From Enoplolaimus lenunculus (taxonomy: Eukaryota), in NCBI GenBank assembly GCA_030248215.1, contig JASANG010000611.1, forward strand, positions 248,001 through 312,000: a stretch of DNA of 64,000 bases, in the 5' to 3' direction. The notes below the pieces were generated by a model. The model made no database searches. It saw only the letters and a list, made by a program, of their open reading frames with translations, and was not told the origin of the DNA. Made by a program: the position numbers and the translations under genes. Of the stretch, positions 30,068-61,125 are shown in pieces (positions within the stretch are counted from its first letter, which is position 1; the number at the start of each line of letters is the position of its first letter).

Positions 30068-33000
30068 ATGATAACCGCTGCTTTTGGCCCAGTACGCGCT
30101 TTCGCGTCTTCCTCGCGATACGGTTGTCTTTGCTCGGTGGCGGCAATTGTACCTTCTGCAACAACACAACTGAAACGTAGTCTTCATTTGTCTTCTCCGT
30201 TTCGTTACGACGATTATGACAATAAATTTTTTTCACCTCCAGGACACAACACTATTGTTGGAGGAAGAAGAGTATGGGACGCGTTAACAGGTACGGTATT
30301 CACTGGTCATTTAGAAAGTCTGCACGGTACCAGGTCGGGTATTCCTAAAAAACTATGGTAGCTCCAGGGACGTAGCAAGGATTTCAATTGTGGAGGGTGT
30401 AAATCCCTTGCGTTTTTGCCCATCGAGTATAGAGTCCGGAAAAACTTGTACACTTAATTCATGCCGCACTGTAGTTTCGATATCATTTAATGCGACTTTT
30501 ATTACACATTTTGTACATTATCTTTATGTTAAACTTGTGCCAATGTTCAGAGCATAATGATAGTACAAAAACTTAGGGACATTTGTATGATATATCTGGT
30601 TCGATGTTCAGTTAGGTGTAATTTTATAGTAACCAAGCGGCCACTGGGGATTGCCACAATGATCTCTATGTTAACAAACTATTCGCCGCACATGGTATTC
30701 TTAGTGTTAATTGCAGGCGATTATTTTCGTGTCCGTAAACGTATCAAAGAAGCAGAGTACGACGTTTATCGCCGGAAAGGTTTGTTGTCACATCAGTGGC
30801 GTGACGTTTTTATGCATGATTTAATTCCATACGAAGTTCACTATTTGATCATTGGCGGTGGTGCGATCGGTAGCTCAATTGCATATTGGTTGCGACAGCG
30901 GTATCGCGATGAAGAAGTACGGGTTACTGTGATTGAACGCGACGATACTGTAAGTTTGTTTTGAATATATACTGTATTATGCATGACCCGTATTCTCAAC
31001 TGTGTGTAGTTTTAATTGCCAATTAGTCTTATATAGGTCATCAAACAATCTGCCTGCAATAGCTGAGGATAATTAGATTCCGCACAGTGTAGCAGCGTAA
31101 AATAAATGCGAAAATGTATCAAATTTCGAAGCGAACCATTCGACATCGCCATAACTTGTGCTATGTGCTAACGAATTTGAGGTTACGAGTCCCTTGGGAT
31201 TGTTCGCATATATATGTTTACACTTAACGGGTAAACTCTGTTAGGTGGATAGTCCCCCACTGTTGGACTGCCCAGATTGATTTCTCTCACTTTTTAGAGT
31301 GTGTTAGCATCATATAATCCTCGATATAATAATGTATGCCAGAAAAATGTATTTATCGGGCGGAAGCCCTAGAATATAACGCGAACGTCATATCTGGGAA
31401 GGTTTATTAGCCATAAATGTCGCTTAGCGATGCCAGAAGCGAATATTGTGTTCTGAATAAAAGTTGGCATACGGGTGTATAACGTATAAAATGGCCTCAG
31501 GTTCCCCTAGACTTAACCTAGAAGAAGTCTTCCACTAGAAATCGAAGATGTGGTCATTCAATAAATGAGAGAACGTGGAGTGCTGACGAAAACGTTCTCC
31601 GAGCAACATGCCGTCTACTTAAAGATTTTGAAACGTTGAAAAACTGTTAGCTCAATATCTAGCATCTTGTAGTTTCATACCTTATGCCAACAAATCCTAT
31701 TAGTAAATAGGAGCTTTGTGATGCTGTATTAAGTTGCATTCGGCTCTGAGTGCAGGACAGTTTTCACGGAAATGCTTAACGGTTTTTCTAATTCTTGTTA
31801 GAAAACGAAAACAAAGGGTGTACACTTATGAACAAGTTGGCTTTAAGTGTATTCAATTGCATTTATTTATTTAGCTATCATAGACTTTATTGAAGTCTAC
31901 TTTTTAGTTCATTGTTGCGTTCTAGTTCAATCAGTCGTCATCAGTTTTGGGGATCGGCGGCCTTCGTCAACAGTTTTCGACACCTGAATTGATTGAAATG
32001 TCACAGTTCGGCGCAGAATTTTTGAGACATGCCGGAGAACATTTGAGGATGCTTGGTATGTCACTAAAATGTGCTGGGTATGTCTTGCTGTTCTATTATA
32101 TTTAGTTTTTGGTGGTTGTTTTTTGTACTGAGCAAACAATCAAGTTTTACTTCAAAATTCTAGTTTTTGTATTTTTATCGCTAGCCTTAAAATTGCGTAC
32201 GGACATTAAACGAGTGAGCTGTATGTAACATACGATTGTTTTAATAGAATTTGCTGTTTTATGACGACGTTTTAATTTCTTCTGTAATTGTGTCAAACTA
32301 AAAGACTTATAGAAGATCGTGAATCGATGAAGCTAAATTTCATGTTCGAAAGGAATGTGCCTGCAGTATCTATAAAACTGATCTCAGCAAGTATGTGTTG
32401 TATTAGTTTGTATATAAGACATACAAAACTTTTAATTGTTGCAAAATCTTTTGTGTTTTAGACTGCGAACCGCCTGATGTTCCGTTTACTCCAATGGGCT
32501 ATTTATTTCTTGCTCAAAATGAATGCGACAAGGAACGGCTTGAAAAAGATCACAAAACGCAGTTGTATGTTTCAATCACACACAATAAATATTTTATTTG
32601 ATGTGTTGCAGTTTTTATACATTGCAAGTTTTAGTCTGTAATTTAAAATTAATCATGTGTAGTATTTAGTACCTATTACAAGTTGGTCGAGTTTTGATTG
32701 GTGCTACTCGTGAGCCGTGTTTAATGTTTGTAGCTGCCGCCCTTCCATTGTTTGAATAACTATTGCTAACCGGTAATAGGTGGTACACATGTTTGAGTGG
32801 TCCTGATCATTGCCCTGCCTCACACTGCTGTTACGTAAACAGTACAATATTTGACCAATAATCTTTAAATCACGGAACTATTTCATGATTTGTTATACTG
32901 TATAGCTATTAGCAGTATTGTTTTGATCGTTATTGATTTAGACATTATGGAGTCAAAGTCGCATTGTTGACTCGTGAGGAATTGTCAGCGAAATTTCCCT

Positions 33001-39778: not shown

Positions 39779-41284
39779 CCCTCAATGGCCCGACAGTCTA
39801 CATATGTAGACATAACCAGTTCGACAATTGATTGTTCGGCAGGTGCTATAGTTAAGAATCTATTGTTTAATTTCCATCGATAATTATTCTGTTATAGTAG
39901 TATAAAAAACTTATAGCATTGTGGGAACAAAAGTTTGCTGTACAGTGAGTCATATACCTATATAACCCGACCGTCTACATATGTAGACAGATGTTGATTT
40001 GATCATAGTTTGAGTTTTGACAAGAATTGGAACGTTTTGTTCTTACACACGGTTTTGTATGGTGAGGTAAAGTCAGGGAAATGTCAGGTTTGCATAAATT
40101 ATCTTTGACTGAGGTCGTACGACGTGTATTAGAACCAAGTGATTCAGAGACAGAAGATCAAACCGGACGACAATAGTTCAAATACGACTCAGAATCAGTT
40201 GAGTTAGGTCAATGCAGTAGTGAAGAGGCTGCTATTTATGAGCAAGATAGTGATGGTGAATTACAAAAACAATCGGACGCATCTAGTAGTGAGTTGAGCG
40301 ATATGGACGAGACTTCTAGTGGAAGTAATGTGTTTTTGTCAGCGACGGGTGTTGAGTGGCATTCTACAACACCGCCTGTCCGTGTGTTAGCTAGAAATAT
40401 AATTCGCTTTCGCGAAGGCACTGCAGTAAACCCTACAACAGAGTCACAAGCATTTTATCTTTATATAAACGAGCCCATTTTACATACAATTCAGCGACTC
40501 ACTAGTAGGCGACTGCGGGCGCGCAATTTTTCAACGCTACCAATGTGCGAGCTGAAAGCTTGGCTTGGGGTGGTAATCAGAGCTGGTGCAGATCGCGATA
40601 ACATGTCTCCAGTGGCTTCACTATTCACCAAAAACGACAGCAGGCCCTTTTACCGCTGCGCGCTGTCAAAAACAGAATGAAACAGTTGCTGGAAAATGTA
40701 ACATTCGACAACAAACTGACTCGCCGGGAGCGTCAAAAAAGTGACAAAATGGCTGCTATACGAGATGTTTGGGACCTATTTCAGTCCAACTTACGTCTTC
40801 ACGGATATCAAAAATCACGCAATGTTTTCATGAAAAAAGTAGCCGAACAACTAGCGCAAGACAATATGACCAAACGTTACAGTAGTGAAAAAATTTACGC
40901 AAAATCAAAGGATTCATTTATGGCTTACGGGCTGCCTCAAAAGCGAAACGAACCTTCTACATCTGGTAAACCGACCAAATGTCAGGTCACAAGTTGTCGC
41001 AAATCTACGAGATTGAGCTGTTCGTCATGTGGAAAACGAGTGTGCAAGGACCACATGAATCGCACCATAACGTGCAACGACTGTGCTTAACTGGACAACG
41101 CGCCCGCAGTGGGAGGCTGGACGGGGAGCGGGTGGAACTCCGCCAGAACACTAGTTCTGACTGTCTCAAGCCAGTTAAAGGAGGAGAGCACCCTGAGATA
41201 AGCCAAAACTAACGCTAGTTGTGTTGTCTACATATGTAGACCGTTGGGCTGATTAAGGTGAAAATTTTGCCGGGCCGTTGAGGG
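39779..41284 (+). mobile_element. Internally deleted piggyBac transposon
   Basis: TTAA TSDs (39775-39778, 41285-41288); TIR CCCTCAA(T/C)GGCCCG(A/G)CA; palindrome GTCTACATATGTAGAC at 39796, 39973, 41226; transposase remnants: acidic N-terminus, ELKAWLG, FDNKLTRRERQKSDKMAAIRDVWDLF, C-terminal Cys-rich domain; DDD core absent. Confidence 0.93.
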
Positions 41285-53753: not shown

Positions 53754-56740
53754 CTAACGAAAGCCGGTTTAACTCTATCGATCGAAACCCTGTTTCGCAG
53801 CCCTTGTTGATCAATTGACACTGTTTTTTCGTCCCAATCGACAATACGATGCGGGCCATTGTAACGGGGTTCGAGACTGTTTCTAGGTGCTGCATCACGC
53901 AACCACACATACTCACATGATCGCAAGTCCTTGGGAACGTAGCAGGGAGCGCGATGGATTCTTACTGGCGCTGAAAAATTCCTTACACCCGCAAAAAATG
54001 TTTCTAAAAAATAATTCGAAAACCTAGGACATTCAGGTGTATTAGTATTGAAAAAATAGCCCGGCAAATTCAGTGATTTCCCATACAATGTTTGTGCTGG
54101 ACAGACTCCGTCGTCGTTAATGGCATTACGAATTCCTAAAAGCAAAAGTGGTAAATGTAATGTCCAATTGGCGCAATCACATTTCGATCGCAACGCAGCT
54201 TTTAGCGTACGATGGAAACGTTCAACGGCCCCATTGCAAGCTGGATGGTAAGCAGTAGTTCGTTTGCGTTTGATTCCCAATTTTCTCATCAACTCGTCCC
54301 AGACAGCAGACTCAAATTGAGGTCCGCGGTCTGAAATAAGAATTCTGGGTACGCCAAAACGGCTGACCCAATGATTAAGAAAAGCACTCACTATGGTAGT
54401 AGTTGACATATCTGCAATCGGAATAGCTTCTGGCCATTTCGTGAAACGATCTACAACTGTTAACAAATACGCAAAACCCCCAGAACGAGGTAACGGTCCT
54501 ACCAAATCTATATGAATTGTGTCTAACCTTGTTGACGTTGGTATATCACCGATTGGGGCGCGGGTATGGCCCACCTTACTGACCTGACATCGGTGACAAA
54601 ACCTACACCAAAGCTTAACTTCTTTGTTCATTCCCGGCCAAATCTTTGCGCAATTGTGCGTAAAGTACAGTTTGGACCGGTGTGAGCAGCATCATGTATA
54701 GCATGAAAATTTTCCTACGCATACAAAAAGGTATGTACGGTCTGATAACGGGAGTGGATGCATCACAAACAACAGTCTTGCCATTCACCTGAAACTTTTT
54801 TAAAGGCAAAGTAGTAGTGTTGAAAAATTGTTGCGAATCATTGTCCTCTAATTGCGCAATAGCCATTTCCTCGTTGCAATCTGAGGTAACAGCTGAACAG
54901 GACGAACGCGACAATGCGTCAGCAACGATGTTGTCGCAACCCGAAACATGCTCAATTTTACAATTATGCTCAGAGGTATAGGACAACCAACGAGATTGCT
55001 GAGGTGTAGGATTCTTCATACTCAATGCATTCAACAGAGGCTTATGATGCGTCCGAATAGTAGATTCGGTTCCCAACAACCACTTGAAATGTTTAAGCGA
55101 GGCATAAATAGCCAATAACTCCCTGTCAAAAGTAGATTTATTTGATTCAGAGTCCAACAGCTTACGTGAATAAAAAGATAGAGGTTGGCGCTCCCCATTA
55201 ACCAGCTGATTGAGAACAGCCCCTATTGCAATATTGGAAGCATCGGCGGTTAACTCAATTGCTGCATCCTCCAGTGGAAAATACAAAGTTCGACAGCTCT
55301 GCAATGCGTTTTTAAGTTCGATGAAAGCTTTTTTCGCGGAAACGTTCCACACCAGAGGTTGTTTGGAATTTTTCTTGACATTGCGCGTCATATCCGTGAG
55401 AGGGGCGGCTATTTCTGAAAATTGAGGAATGAATCTATGGTAAAATGCGCACATACCAATGAACCGTCTCAAACCTTTAACGGTAACTGGCATTTCAAAA
55501 CTGTTAATGGCATCGATCTTCGCCGTCAACGGACGAAACCCCCCGCATGTAATTTCAAACCCGATAAATTTTGTTTTAGACACTAAAAACTCACATTTCT
55601 CCTTTTTTAAACGCAAACCATTAGCAGATAAATGTTCAAATAACTGATGCAGATGTTTGATATGTTGCGGTATATCTTCACTAGCAATAAGTACATCATC
55701 TAAATACGCAATTGCAAAGGTGCAACCACGCAAAACGGTGTCCATTAAACGCTGAAATGTTTGAGCTGCATTCCGCAAGCCAAACGGCATGCGCCTGTAA
55801 ATGAAAAGTCCGAAGGGGGTAGTATAATTGCGGTTTTCAACTGGTCCTCCACCGCCACCGGTATCTGATGATAGGCGGACACTAGATCCACTTTGGAAAA
55901 TACCTTGCAATTCCCGAGCCGATTTGTCAAATCCCCTATGTTAGGCATCGGGTACCGATCAGGGATAGTCACTTTGTTCAACTTGCGATAATCGCCGCAA
56001 GGGCGCCATGGCGTCGCGTTATCTGTTTTGGGAGCCATGTGCAAAGCGGATGACCACGGCGATTCCCCTCGAAAAACCACGCCCTGTTTTTCGAGATTTT
56101 CAAAGGACTTTTTGGCAATCTCAAGTTTTGGACCAAAAAGCCTGCGGGGTTTACTGAAAACAGGCTGTCCATTTGTCACAATTCTGTGAACGACAGAATG
56201 TTGGATAACATCATTAGACGATGGTTTATCAAAAATATTTGAATACTCTTTCAAAATGCTACGGAGTTCAACACTCCCTGATGGTGCAATCGAGGAAACG
56301 TTGGTCGGTCTCACATTACGGCTAATAACTGAAAACTGGGCAAAATTGGCAACTTCTTTACCATAATTGAACCTATGACCTCGTACTAAACGCAAATTCC
56401 GACAGTCTACCACTAAATTATGATTGCTCAAAAAATCAAATCCTAAAATTGGCTGCGAAACATCGGCTATAACAAAATCCCATGAAAACTTCTGACCGAG
56501 CTGCGGAATGCGGAAATTTAACATTTTGGTCCCAAAACTAGGAACTGGAAAACCATTTGCTGCATAAAAGGTATCCGCCTGCGCCTCTGAACTGGTTTTG
56601 AACCCTCCAACGAACGATTTCGGCAAAAAACTTTTAACGCTGCCCGTGTCTGCTAAAAAAATACCGATCTCGGGAACTGCGACATTTATTGTTCTGACTC
56701 CGGTCCCTGTCGCCGCGGGGCCGGAGACTGTGCTTTTCCC
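53663..56740 (-). pseudogene. pol: Pol: aspartic protease, RT, RNase H, integrase; three internal frame breaks (~55825, ~54706, ~54641)
   Basis: FLADTGS, ILGFDFL, WRPCGDYRKLN, MPFGLRNA, YLDD, TADAS, DRELLA, HDAAH...CHRC, HIDLVGP, SDRGPQF, NGAVERFHRTLK, PRYNGPHRI. Confidence 0.95.
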
Positions 56741-57723
56741 GAATCTCTTACAACCCATTCACATGGTTTGACACATCTATGCGCTCGTGGGCCGAACCTC
56801 GCATGGTAAAAACAAAGCTGTCGACCAGCGCCATACCGCATTCCAGATCGTGAACTACGCGCAGAATTAGATCTCGACCGACCTGCAAAATGCCGTCCAT
56901 CTCTTGGACGCCTTTTATTCAACCCGTCCACGCGTTTACTGAGCTGTGCTATACAATTTGACATTTCCTTCATCTGAAGTCACAAGGTGTCATCAGCCTT
57001 TTCCTGACATGTTTCCGTAACCGATGATACACATGCATCAACACTAGCGCCGGGAGTCAACTGCTCTAAAATGCGATCAGCAAGACTAGCTAATTTCTCA
57101 ATTTTAACATCATCAACAACGACCAACGAAATTCTAACTTTCTCAGGAAGCGCAGCCATAAATCTCAGTTTCACCAAATCTGCATGACCAGGCGCTTTTC
57201 CCTGCAGCTGCCGCAGCAACACTGAAGGCTTTCGATCCCCTAAAACTTGCTGTTCCAACAGCTTCCGTAACTGCATCTCTTCACTTTGCCCAAAAAATTT
57301 AGTTACACAGTCTTTTATAGCTGCAGAGCTGTCCGTGGCATTTGTACCACTGTCTATCATGACATTGGTGGGTAGCGCATTAAGCAGTGCGTTCCTCTTT
57401 GAGGTTTCCGACAATCCCTCTATTAATGGCTCAATCTACGTGAACCAAACCCTTACATCACGTTCATAAAACTCGGGCAATTTTGGTAAACGACTGTTAC
57501 CGTCAGCGGGACCACTAGCTGCGGACAATGGTTGCTGCCCCGCCTCTGCCCACAATAACGCAACACTAACTACACCTGGTGGTATTTGGGCCAAAGCGTC
57601 CGCAATCAGACGCTTGGTTCCCGGCATTACAAAATCCGAATCATGCTCATTTATCAACTGGAGCGCTCTAGCCAACACCTCTTTATTGTATTTATCCAGG
57701 TTGGCCGCGTCTAACTTTGGGGG
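56686..57723 (-). pseudogene. gag: Gag, starting at the Pro after the second 2A motif; two in-frame stops (TAG 57438-57436, TGA 56982-56980)
   Basis: One frame: KLPEFYERDVRVWFT*IE, LGDRKPSVLLRQLQ, FMAALPEKVR, LASLADRI, knuckle CFYHARFGPRAHRCVKPC. Confidence 0.9.
56698..56740 (-). promoter_or_regulatory. Putative programmed -1 ribosomal frameshift signal (gag-pol)
   Basis: G_GGA_AAA in the gag frame (56740-56734); 7 nt later the hairpin CTCCGG-C-CCC-(9 nt)-GGG-A-CCGGAG (56726-56698); pol lies in the -1 frame. Confidence 0.75.
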
Positions 57724-57780
57724 CCCAGGATTGGGTTCGATTCCTGCTATAATCAGTAAAATGCGCAGTTGAGTAGCATG
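57721..57780 (-). other. 2A-like StopGo motif 2 (variant): HATQLRILLIIAGIEPNPG|P
   Basis: Hydrophobic helix + GIExNPGP, directly before Gag. Confidence 0.75.
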
Positions 57781-58623
57781 GCGAGCGCAAATCCCGCTAC
57801 TAGTATTTTCTATAGTACCATCAGCATACATTTTAACGTATTGCGGTGCCTCAGCCCTAACATTAGTAAACAAAATATTTACCGTAAGAAATATGAAAAG
57901 TATAAAATACACCTGCAATCCCACGGTCAAAGCTGTGTACAAACAATTTGCACGCATATTGTTTGTATTAGCTAAACAATTTGTCGAACAAAAATTCTCA
58001 TTTTTGCGCGAAACCTGAGTTTTTACAAATTGGGCATGAACAATATCATTCCTCGTATTGGGATTACTAAAAAATGTCTCAATACTGGACCGATTGTAAC
58101 AATGTTTTGATACTTTCTGAATTTTGTTCGGTGGCTTTCTCAAACGTGACAAACCAATGCCCGGAGACTTAATTATTGAACTTGAAACATGATTACTTAC
58201 GTTGGACGAGTTACCACGGTGACCAAAGTGATCAACCAAAAGCTTGTTTGCTATTGAACATATGATACGAAAACGCCGGGATCCTAAATGCACACCACCA
58301 TACCACCGGGTAACAACCACCATGACATTGGTAGCGCCAATAAGTTGTATTGTTTTCAATAAACGGCAACCAGCACCAAATTCACCATCATCATTAAATC
58401 CGGAATGCAACCCCGCTGCGCTGTTAATACAATAAGCATATATATTGTGCGTTGCCTTTGCAACTTTTTTGTTACCTGCCAAAAAATTTTCCAAAATTAC
58501 CTGAACATCGTCAGTTGGTAACAAATATGCAATATGTGCTTGAAAAATACTTTTTTTAAAAGCGAACGATTCGCCAGACATAAAACTGCTCACCCTACTG
58601 TTTGCTCCCCCATTTGTCAATGG
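57724..58623 (-). CDS. 300-aa cassette between the two 2A motifs: IMPACT/YigZ (UPF0029) domain (~58580-58225), linker, transmembrane helix (~57945-57860)
   Basis: KKSIFQAHIA, NKKVAKATHNIYAY, DDGEFGAGCRLL, NVMVVVTRWYGGVHLGSRRF are signature motifs of the IMPACT C-terminal domain; hydrophobic LTVGLQVYFILFIFLTVNILF. Confidence 0.9.
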
Positions 58624-58680
58624 ACCAGGATTTGATTCCACGTCTCCGGCCATTAACAATAGTAACTTTAAAGCGGTAGC
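58621..58680 (-). other. 2A StopGo motif 1 (canonical): ATALKLLLLMAGDVESNPG|P
   Basis: Exact D(V/I)ExNPGP consensus with a Leu-rich helix, very close to FMDV 2A (LLKLAGDVESNPGP). Confidence 0.92.
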
Positions 58681-59119
58681 TTGACTGAATCCCATCCTAC
58701 CAGAATTGTACATTGCAAATTTAACCCGTTTTCCTTTTAAAAATTCCCGCATTGTTCGCGAAGCATAAGTTTCAGCTAACCTACTAGAAACAAATAAGAG
58801 CTGTGCGCGATACAAAGCTGGTGTAATTGTAATACGCAACTGCTTAGATACAGTACGAAAACCTACAACGTGAAATAACAAATATAGCAACATAAGGGGC
58901 ATAAAAACATTCACTTTATCACGTTTCTTCTTTGCGCGTGAAATTGTGGCCAAACGACGCTTAGATCGATGTTGCGGCGACTCTGTTTTTTGGCGACAAA
59001 ACTTTATTTGTTTCCAAAGAAAAGTTACCGTCGCGTCGAAAACCATTGCAATAAGGACGAGCGACGCCGATTTCGTACACGCGCGAAACCCTTCGGAAAT
59101 GTACGCAAATCTCAAACTG

Positions 59120-59137
59120 ATCACGTCGGGGTCACCA
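59120..59137 (-). other. Primer binding site complementary to the tRNA-Trp 3' end
   Basis: TGGTGACCCCGACGTGAT, 2 nt after the 5' LTR; complement of ...AUCACGUCGGGGUCACCA of eukaryotic tRNA-Trp. Confidence 0.9.
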
Positions 59138-59139
59138 AG

Positions 59140-59516
59140 TATAGGTGCGTGAATTGTGATCCAACTAGCGCAACATAACACTAGAGTGAGCATTATCTTA
59201 AACATTGTATTATTGCATTTATTGTGTACAACAAGTATTTTATTGGTACAAAAAATACACCTGAAAAATGACAAAAACACACAAAATGAAACAACAACAA
59301 AGCTAGCCCATCTGTAACAAAACCAGAAAAGAAGCCAAACCAAAACACTAGCCCTTGACACCAGACTTTCTCCAACTGAGATGATTGCTAAGTTTTACTC
59401 TTGACAACTGTGTCGCCCCCGCAATATGCAAATTATCATGAAAGCTAACCCGGCAGTTGTTAAGCGCAGCATGCAAATTGCTCGCAAAACTACAGCGAGA
59501 GAACACGGCCGCCACA
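59140..59516 (-). repeat. 5' LTR (377 bp)
   Basis: Direct repeat of 52857-53232, followed by the PBS. Confidence 0.95.
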
Positions 59517-60153
59517 GTTGTTTCGCTTCCAGAAGTTCCAAAATTTGTTTACTCCCGGCTCCGGTATTTTGAACGTCCATACACTGCAAAAAATGGTGAG
59601 TCAAATTGACTCTCTCCTGCTCTATGGCAGGGTTCCAACGGAATTCCGATTCCGGTTAAAATTCCGAACAATTTGGGTTCCGATTCCGATTGGCCTTTAT
59701 TCCGATGCCGGAATTCCGATTTAAATTAGTTTTTAAGCTGATTGAACTTATATTTTGCCTATTTTTTCCTTTGTTTGCAAATCTGTTTGTTGTTGTTTTC
59801 GAAGCATTCTAATTATTTCGCTGATTGTCAGAAAGAGTTCTACTTCATGGCGGCAAGCAGTGATGTTAGCCCTACTAGTTCTCAAATCATATGAACACGA
59901 TAGTGTTCATATATATGGTTCGCGCTTCTCAAGTGCGAATTTTCAGTTTAGTTTGCATGTTTTTATATTTTGTACATTGGTATCCTGGTACCTGTGCCTA
60001 AGGATTTGCCAAACAAGCGCGGCCTTCAGTAGTTACGGTCAAACAACACCTTACAAAAAGTGCACGAAATTTTCCATTTTGGTTGCCTTTTACCCGTTGC
60101 ATACACCTTAGACCCTGGCCGGCCCCCCCCCCCCTGGTCCCAAACAAACCCCC

Positions 60154-60430
60154 TTCACCCCAACGATTGGTTTTACCCCCAACGGTTGCTTTCACCCCAC
60201 GTGTTGGTTTCACACTAACGATTGGTTTTACCCCAACGGTTGGTTTCACCACAACGGTTACTTTCACCCCAACGGTTGGTTTCACCCGCACGGTTGGTTT
60301 ACCTCAACGGATGGTTTCACCCCACGGTGATTTTACCCCAACGGTTGGTTTCACTACAACGGTTAGTTTCACCCCAACGGTTGGTTTCACCCCAACGGTC
60401 GGTTTCACCCCAATGCTTGGTTTCACCCCA
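60154..60430. repeat. 18-bp minisatellite, ~15 units, consensus TTTCACCCCAACGGTTGG
   Basis: Direct head-to-tail repeats without spacers; preceded by a C run at 60123-60134. Confidence 0.92.
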
Positions 60431-60541
60431 TTTCTGTCATGCAAACGATTTATTGAAACTCCGTATTTAGTTTAATCAGTCTTTTCATTTTTCATAGTTC
60501 AGATTAATGGATTAATCAGCAGCTTGGTAAAGCAGTTGAAA

Positions 60542-61125
60542 CTAGAAAAAATTGCTCAGCACTTGAGCAGCATGGGATATGCTTCATATTCCTATTAAAA
60601 GGATAGTAACTAGATCAGCATATTCGTTCGATGTAACCTGGAAAAATATTAAAAAACAATGGCGTCCAAAATCATGTTGACTATTAATTCCTCTGAAACA
60701 TATTGCGGATAGCAAAATTTCTGTAAGTTTCTTTTTGTAAGAAACAAATGTTTTGCCTAAAATGTGTATTGAAGTTTTCTACAAGAACGTACTAAACTCA
60801 CCTTTGGCTCTCTTTAACATAGTTAATTGAATTTCATAAGAACACTGTATGGCGACATAATTGGTGAGTTAGAGTATTGGTGACCAATTTTGTTTTAGAT
60901 ATTTTCTCAAACAAGGGGCTGTCACAAAATGACTCGCAATTGATGCGTTAAAAACGACTCTTGACTTTAGCCCAGAAGAATTAATAGTCAACATGATTTT
61001 GGACGCCATTGTTTCTTAATATTTTTATAGGTTACACCGAACGAATGTGCTGTCTAGTTACTATCCTTTTAATAGGAATATGAAGCATATACCATGCTGC
61101 TCAAGTGCTTCGCAATTTTTTCTAG
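60542..61125. mobile_element. MITE/fold-back element with ~155-bp terminal inverted repeats
   Basis: 60542-60695 is the near reverse complement of 60973-61125 (e.g. GGATAGTAACTAGA / TCTAGTTACTATCC, CAATGGCGTCCAAAATCATGTTGAC / GTCAACATGATTTTGGACGCCATTG). Confidence 0.85.

Follow-up and report, generated by a model that had tools for sequence, protein, structure and literature searches.

How is the capsid protein of a retrotransposon produced when its reading frame is interrupted, ahead of Gag, by two sequences resembling the 2A ribosome-skipping peptides of viruses? The question is raised by a 64,000-nucleotide (nt) stretch of Enoplolaimus lenunculus DNA (assembly GCA_030248215.1, contig JASANG010000611.1, positions 248,001 to 312,000; hereafter the window), in which a long terminal repeat (LTR) element on the minus strand carries two such motifs in its first open reading frame (ORF1). 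Our analysis makes it likely that this element is a disabled CsRn1-like copy from a lineage in which a leader peptide and a 2A precede Gag, that Gag is released by skipping at its initial proline, and that the second 2A of this copy would free a protein with an IMPACT/UPF0029 domain. Below, positions are those of the window, and products of translation are discussed for a working parent of the copy.

Two 2A-type motifs in one frame of a CsRn1-like element

The ORF1 frame (59394-57436, minus strand) is open over 652 codons and contains both motifs, the first reading ALKLLLLMAGDVESNPGP and ending at 58621, the second reading LRILLIIAGIEPNPGP and ending at 57721, in the same frame and exactly 900 nt apart. 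This agrees with a preliminary description of the locus, which had reported two 2A-type motifs at this spacing in one open frame and had given the first of them one leucine too many. These are the only NPGP occurrences in the six frames of the window.

58621-58644, minus strand: 2A core 1, DVESNPGP, read from the sequence and preceded by LKLLLLMAG
57721-57744, minus strand: 2A core 2, GIEPNPGP, preceded by ARHATQLRILLIIA; the Gag-adjacent 2A native to the family

Both motifs match the published core (D/G/C/N)(V/I)ExNPGP, in which glycine is as common as aspartate at the first position and variants with D, G or N there are established or functional in viruses (PMC12846837). Given the residue frequencies of the six frames, 1.8e-4 such octamers would be expected in the window, and the probability of two is ~1.6e-8. 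The upstream context is also of the kind that supports 2A activity, with five leucines at positions -19 to -10 in motif 1 and three in motif 2, and the segment matching this context is helical in the structural model of a relative, P0132 (H71-83, at a low predicted local distance difference test score, pLDDT). Because the context of the second motif (2A-2) is closest to that of P0126 and P0125, close Gag relatives that share its G-form core, we regard 2A-2 as the native motif of the family; the first (2A-1) is family-like too, though less specifically. Judged by sequence, both are real 2A-type motifs, and separation at G|P by skipping would be expected at each.

The frame is enclosed by an LTR element of 6.66 kb on the minus strand, delimited by the following features.

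59139-59516, minus strand: 5' LTR, 378 nt, beginning with TG and differing from the 3' LTR by two substitutions and one one-base gap
59120-59137, minus strand: primer-binding site (PBS) TGGTGACCCCGACGTGAT, directly 3' of the 5' LTR
52856-53232, minus strand: 3' LTR, with the purine-rich tract GATGGTGGGGG just before it

We take the PBS to be of the tRNA-Trp type. Pfam domains occur in gypsy order (reverse transcriptase (RT), RNase H, integrase), so that the element consists of two LTRs, a PBS, a polypurine tract, and gag followed by protease (PR), RT, RNase H (RH) and integrase (IN). The end of Gag carries a CHCC signature, CX2HX9CX3C (CFYHARFGPRAHRCVKPC, within 56979-56686, minus strand). A tRNA-Trp PBS, this CHCC motif and a 4-bp target-site duplication (TSD) are given as traits of the CsRn1 clade (PMC2582038), and by the first two of them, as read in sequence, the element is a CsRn1-like Ty3/gypsy retrotransposon. 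Its flanks, ACAAC|TG and CA|ACAAT, form a 5-bp repeat with one mismatch and no clean 4-bp TSD. For this reason, and because the clade was assigned from PBS type and Gag signature, we use the label "CsRn1-like" only.

We compared the element with contigs from three sequencing runs (two samples from one study, perhaps not independent of the source of the window). These contigs span 56.5-59.1 kb at ~99% identity and flat depth, which argues that the layout is not an assembly chimera. Two of them have a single gap over this interval, at 58903, so both 2As and the sequence between them remain in one frame; the third has four gaps over a longer span. A related contig, present in all three runs, skips 55948-56551 and 56570-56791 and is likely an internally deleted member of the family. 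The copy in the window is disabled, a state the preliminary description had missed: gag contains two in-frame stops (TAG at 57438-57436 and 56982-56980), the first falling 95 codons into Gag, and the frame of pol is broken.

Conservation of the 2A before Gag

The protein that begins at the second motif is the following.

56686-57723, minus strand: Gag, 345 codons from the post-2A proline, with a helical N-domain, a capsid region (DUF7041-like), the CHCC motif and two in-frame stops

That Gag comes directly after the second motif, as first proposed, was borne out: the protein there is homologous along its length to Gags of the CsRn1 type (E 7e-69 to P0125 in tblastn). Its match to DUF7041 lies below the cutoff (E 0.0025). 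Residues 165-324 of the P0132 model match the capsids of PEG10, MLV, Copia, dArc and Ty3 at Z 6.9-9.5; with this model, Foldseek alone found nothing at E<=0.001.

Querying 1.84 billion representatives by phmmer with the cargo linker, 2A-2 and Gag (X at the first stop) returned 1821 matches, of which the best 150 were used. A strict 2A octamer is present in 14 of these 150, all within the top 17, and in all 14 it lies in frame 74-152 residues before a conserved LPxF...WF capsid motif (80 residues in the window). The 14 relatives, whose proteins derive from Logan, ENA, JGI and NCBI (11 of the 14 were looked up), and the window are 28-44% identical to one another in pairwise comparison. Since the query contained the 2A, ranking and tree were redone on the Gag core alone. 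In this tree, built without the 2A from 67 rows (the window and 66 of 147 sufficiently covered matches, comprising the top-26 ones and every third thereafter), all 15 rows with a 2A fall in one 27-row clade (branch support 100/100), the motif occurs in none of the 40 rows outside it, and no label shuffle out of 500 equals this clustering. Sequence comparison thus presents the Gag-adjacent 2A as a lineage trait, kept in frame across one clade, and conservation of the junction at such low identity points to long selection.

Because the 2A is retained in frame before Gag in 14 distant relatives, Gag very likely starts at the post-skip proline. In 13 of the 14 no methionine occurs within 11 residues after this proline, and in five there is none for at least 63 residues. 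It is very improbable, in our judgment, that the motifs are inert or due to chance and that translation of Gag begins at a start codon of its own or uses a spliced RNA. Such an origin of Gag would fit six clade members annotated from an internal methionine, a six-row sub-clade without the 2A, and AG acceptor-like sequences that follow pyrimidine runs in the LTR and leader (identified by eye). It would leave two octamers to a chance of ~1e-8, however, and would not account for the full conservation of the octamer, each time in frame, among 14 proteins whose identity is otherwise 28-44%.

Searches beyond these proteins added little to the clade. Word-index searches scored ~8000 candidates each, making them weak evidence of absence, and returned two matches for Gag (at longer lengths) and three, already known, for the family profile. 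DNA loci of the 2A clade were confirmed for 0 of 58 and 0 of 14 stretches in viral_contigs and for 0 of 32 in metagenome_contigs. The 26 retroelement loci recovered by an RT-based scan are more distant (30-42% identity), and neither the 2A octamer nor the CHCC motif occurs in any of them.

The first ~50 residues of post-2A Gag (57723-57560, minus strand) form a small helical domain that is conserved in the clade (pLDDT ~90 in P0132). A SAP/HeH-like identity for this domain was rejected, with matches that were sub-threshold only (SAP/Rho_N, relative P0145, E 0.03-0.06).

The leader peptide and the output of Gag

Upstream of the first motif, ORF1 encodes a leader whose frame extends toward the LTR.

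58624-58902, minus strand: leader peptide, 93 amino acids (aa; ATG at 58902 to NPG), with a hydrophobic N-terminal stretch after a basic cluster (KD13 hydropathy 2.31)
58903-59394, minus strand: upstream ORF1 extension overlapping the LTR, open, with in-frame ATGs at 59205, 59193 and 59046; its coding status is uncertain

Counted from the ATG at 58902, the leader has a hydrophobic start and 94 codons to the proline, the same length as the leaders of relatives, in which the region before the 2A is ~70-150 aa long (exceptions are P0131, with 341, and P0133, truncated at 26). In the clade, the leader (~100 aa) is mostly conserved, even with the 2A removed: a leave-one-out profile scored 27-55 bits in 11 of 13 leaders and 8.5 and 2.2 bits in the other two. 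A hydrophobic stretch (KD13>=1.8 within the first 35 residues) is found in 8 of 13 leaders of 2A-bearing relatives, compared with 0 of 136 Gags that lack a 2A. The leader of P0132 has low pLDDT in its model. The 341-aa region of P0131 has no Pfam match and is possibly another cargo fused into the leader. As for the segment before 2A-2, we rejected the possibility that it duplicates the leader, as 170 of 300 shuffles scored as high on the leader profile.

We propose, tentatively, that the hydrophobic N-terminus of the leader may be a signal sequence that takes the translating RNA to the endoplasmic reticulum (ER), while the 2A keeps Gag cytosolic. The analogy is with Ty1, whose RNA is translated on ribosomes bound by the signal recognition particle, which nucleate particle assembly sites (PMC3945221). 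Upstream of the leader, the frame stays open beyond what shuffling predicts: the interval 59250-58903 is open in 9 of 4000 shuffles, and that from the PBS to 58903 (59136-58903) in 247 of 4000. At 58903, however, within a stretch of T, the contigs from the three runs each lack one base, which breaks the link between their upstream frame and the frame of the 2As. With an upstream start, the hydrophobic stretch would be a signal anchor after the basic cluster.

The same context admits a different emphasis, in which the motifs are mainly translational throttles (through stalling, fall-off and reduced output) that set the level of Gag, and partial skipping leaves membrane-bound leader-Gag fusions, for which glyco-Gag provides a parallel. 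We think it unlikely that this is their principal role. All 16 motifs have 3-5 leucines at -19 to -10, a range that goes with the "reduction" class of eukaryotic 2A-like peptides, into which the majority of the assayed retrotransposon 2As fall; leucine-rich peptides of this kind often lower protein output, instead of or alongside skipping (10.64898/2026.06.17.732966). In addition, entry of the upstream protein into the ER can inhibit skipping (PMC2978324), and some picornavirus 2As terminate without restart (PMC11512398). Gag, however, is needed in quantity, and its conserved N-terminus lies right at the proline, mostly without a nearby methionine. Throttling is also compatible with skipping rather than exclusive of it, and in the reading we prefer, release of Gag at the proline, the leucine-rich 2As may throttle Gag output as well and skipping may be partial.

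An IMPACT-type domain between the motifs

Between the two skip sites lies a cargo of 300 aa, which the preliminary description had taken to be a separate protein; a recognizable domain and a linker held open support that view.

58240-58557, minus strand: IMPACT/Yih1/YigZ "ancient" domain (UPF0029; Pfam PF01205, E 6.1e-25, profile positions 1-106 of 107)
57784-58239, minus strand: cargo linker, 152 codons, with 0 stops compared with 8 and 17 in the other frames; open in 0 of 5000 shuffles

The domain (residues 280-385 of the ORF1 frame) matches yeast Yih1 (6bqi, E 1e-13) and retains intact the SxFQAH, ATHN, DDGE and RWYGG motifs of UPF0029, and its identity to the other 36 rows of our UPF0029 tree does not exceed 48%. 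The linker has a predicted transmembrane-like stretch of 19 aa at ~57924-57868 (KD19 2.27). An RWD domain was not found in ORF1, in which PF01205 is the sole Pfam match and begins 22 residues past the first skip site. In IMPACT/Yih1, the RWD domain mediates competition for Gcn1 binding and inhibition of GCN2, while the "ancient" domain is universally conserved and its function is described as elusive (PMC4503747). Since it lacks the Gcn1-binding RWD domain, the cargo is probably not a standard GCN2 inhibitor. Our best guess is a ribosome- or RNA-associated accessory protein, possibly anchored in a membrane.

In the 37-row tree, the window domain joins four UPF0029 domains of LINE (long interspersed nuclear element)-ORF1p-like proteins (97/87), a join flagged as long branches meeting. 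A variant, DDGE(F/Y)GAG, is common to the window domain and the two of these proteins that were aligned (P0030 and P0050). All four (P0030, P0042, P0050 and P0084) carry UPF0029 at the C-terminus and form a clade of their own (100/98), apart from RWD-bearing IMPACT; the label "LINE-ORF1p-like" is our reading of their coiled coil, RNA recognition motif (RRM)-like and C-terminal domain (CTD) motifs. These sequence patterns hint that UPF0029 has been shuffled between mobile elements, of which it may be a recurrent cargo. Fresh capture of a canonical, RWD-bearing IMPACT gene appeared less likely than transfer from a mobile element, in a tree that has long-branch warnings and few animal rows.

Whether the cargo serves the element is a separate matter. 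It is a substantial possibility, falling somewhat short of an even chance, that the IMPACT cargo is a tolerated passenger acquired once, a 2A-IMPACT segment of another mobile element that recombined into an element whose family 2A is real, and that survived only because the flanking 2As spare Gag. The cargo is found in no relative, flat depth and one contig per run suggest few copies, and UPF0029 occurs at the C-terminus of the four ORF1p-like proteins with which the window domain groups and shares its DDGE variant; furthermore, in ticks and a limpet, 2A-like peptides have been reported ahead of ORF1p-like proteins (10.64898/2026.06.17.732966). The grouping, however, is the one flagged for long branches, and a mere passenger would have kept every hallmark motif of UPF0029 despite low identity to all other tree rows, together with an open linker of 152 codons. 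As Gag needs an open frame in any case, only the conservation of motifs argues for a function of the cargo, and this could be inherited from the donor.

Proposed expression and the pol region

Beyond Gag, the element continues with the features below.

56734-56740, minus strand: candidate -1 frameshift heptamer G_GGA_AAA into pol, in phase with gag, where pol begins
53663-56758, minus strand: pol (PR-RT-RNase H-IN), in three frames with breaks near 55.8 kb and 54.65 kb, identified by Pfam (RVT_1, RT_RNaseH, rve) and tblastn
53439-53612, minus strand: PWWP domain of the HDGFRP2/LEDGF type (Pfam PF00855, E 1.2e-07; PDB 3qby, E 1.3e-05; atlas score 0.92)

In a working parent, ribosomes would begin in the leader and skip at NPG|P twice, producing the leader, the 300-aa cargo and Gag, and a -1 shift at G_GGA_AAA would yield Gag-Pol; the Gags of most relatives finish with an (S)GN motif at the place of this heptamer. 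Since both motifs resemble the family 2A beyond the core, the most likely route of entry for the cargo is insertion between two family 2As that arose by duplication or recombination. Such bracketing leaves the N-terminus of Gag unchanged, which would make the insertion tolerable.

The PWWP domain sits between the integrase and the 3' LTR in a methionine-free frame (53753-53064, minus strand) that overlaps the end of the integrase by 91 nt and, in this broken copy, differs from the integrase frame. It retains Tyr, Trp and Phe at positions aligned with 3qby. By analogy to the chromodomain of chromoviruses, it may be a former C-terminal chromatin reader of the integrase.

A bolder synthesis would see here an undescribed gypsy lineage that makes its capsid obligatorily by way of a signal-bearing leader and a 2A skip, with the leader docking RNA at the ER. 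The 2A would then act as an expansion joint for accessory genes, among them an RWD-less IMPACT acting on host translation, and a LEDGF-like PWWP would steer the integrase to active chromatin. Taken as a whole, we consider this synthesis improbable.

Several observations weigh against skip-dependent release of leader, cargo and Gag. This copy cannot produce full Gag or Pol, and its candidate start codons in ORF1 are several in-frame ATGs (59205, 59193, 59046 and 58902), none of which is singled out. The window leader resembles the family leader weakly (5.3 bits with the 2A removed, in register; 2 of 300 shuffles score at least as high), and no likeness to it is seen in the segment before 2A-2 (-1.0 bits). 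The hydrophobicity of the N-termini could in part come from T-rich 5' DNA, as other frames of the window near the leader are hydrophobic too. The 2A is missing from 12 of the 27 clade rows, six of which are predictions starting at or after the Gag N-terminus, and it is by Gag homology that the 2A-bearing relatives are read as LTR elements. These 14 relatives all lack both a second 2A and a UPF0029 domain. Likewise, among the UPF0029 proteins matched in a word-index search with ORF1 (192 matches, the best 120 of which all carry PF01205 and cover <=25% of the query), 0 of 120 have a 2A.

These results also bear on conservation of both motifs in the family, which the preliminary description had set beforehand as a test of its claim: the Gag-adjacent 2A, in frame in 14 relatives, came through it; motif 1 has no positional homolog in any of them. 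The further suggestion of a "modular cargo slot" used throughout the family is not supported by the same comparison. With neither a second 2A nor UPF0029 in the relatives, what is conserved is the arrangement leader-2A-Gag; the cargo flanked by 2As, found in DNA runs of this species and in no relative, is so far private to this element family.

The six remaining clade rows that lack the 2A (P0139, P0145, P0147, P0149, P0184 and P0198) form a sub-clade (95/94) of Met-initiated Gags, which, by sequence, may have lost the leader and 2A or never had them.

Other features of the window

The host is a eukaryote whose nearby genes are split by introns; exons of an FAD-dependent oxidoreductase and an inositol monophosphatase family protein were recognized at 30533-30964 and 45965-47244 (both plus strand). 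Other mobile sequences include a decayed DNA transposase-like stretch (40177-41090) and a 971-codon open frame (38468-35553, minus strand) of a non-LTR retrotransposon with RT and RNase H, in which there is no NPGP. An 18-nt minisatellite and, nearby, an element resembling a miniature inverted-repeat transposable element (MITE), with inverted arms of ~155 nt and 93-96% complementarity, occupy 60151-60464 and 60542-61125.

Comparison with known systems

Among the known ways in which LTR retrotransposons and retroviruses shape their proteins are protease cleavage, frameshifting, readthrough and splicing. A Gag N-terminus defined by StopGo would add a further route. The feature at the Gag junction is real and conserved, a new arrangement of known parts, and the two-motif cargo is so far confined to a single element family. 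Most cellular 2A-like hits lack selection of such length, and the 16 natural variants, which include D, N and G forms and share one homologous context, offer material for work on mechanism. The copy also provides an example of a compact element taking on a gene with Gag undisturbed, and its isolated UPF0029 domain is a handle on a universally conserved domain of elusive function.

Among described LTR elements, CsRn1, PwRn1 and AgCR share with this copy a tRNA-Trp-type PBS, the CHCC motif, PR-RT-RH-IN order, a gag/pol overlap suited to frameshifting and LTRs of ~380 nt (PMC2582038). The leader, two 2As, IMPACT domain and PWWP frame set it apart from these members, for which the consulted passages of that paper describe no leader-2A, cargo or chromodomain-like addition, and the lack of a clean 4-bp TSD sets it apart from the CsRn1 clade. 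Recent preprints describe a Ty3-like RT with a 2A-like peptide at its C-terminal end (10.64898/2026.06.17.732966) and count LTR-retrotransposon-like contigs as a minority class among 2A-containing retroelements (10.64898/2026.09.24.754024). No 2A-released Gag or bracketed cargo is described in the portions of these preprints consulted; "gag" and "gypsy" occur nowhere in their main texts, and members of the lineage may be listed in their supplements. Nothing recognizable as the 2A of this family appears among the matches listed in the passages and supplement of PMC12338488 or the supplement of PMC12846837 that we consulted. In the open literature (most subscription papers and Repbase lay outside our scope), our searches turned up no account of an LTR retrotransposon whose Gag is released by a 2A, of UPF0029 in a retrotransposon or of PWWP in gypsy elements.

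The leader and 2A recall the APE-type (apurinic/apyrimidinic endonuclease) non-LTR elements Ingi, L1Tc, Rex1, Crack, L2, L2A and CR1, in which a motif of the GD(V/I)ExNPGP type stands near the N-terminus of the ORF and frees the functional protein from a short leader (Odon et al. 2013, PMC3708506); the word "gypsy" has no occurrence in the text of that paper. In those elements the motif precedes ORF2p, whereas here the element has LTRs, the motif precedes a capsid protein and there are two motifs. The cargo shares with IMPACT/Yih1/YigZ a complete C-terminal "ancient" domain with invariant loop motifs, and it differs from IMPACT/Yih1 in lacking RWD, in being encoded by a retrotransposon and in being followed by a linker with a hydrophobic stretch (PMC4503747). 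For the bracketing itself, the closest likeness in our comparison is to picornaviruses with multiple 2A-NPGP motifs (Paavivirinae), whose tandem 2As also bracket inserted polyprotein sequence. In these RNA viruses the inter-2A pieces are short, and a study of them found no accessory function (PMC11512398), whereas the piece between the 2As of the Enoplolaimus lenunculus element is a recognizable domain.

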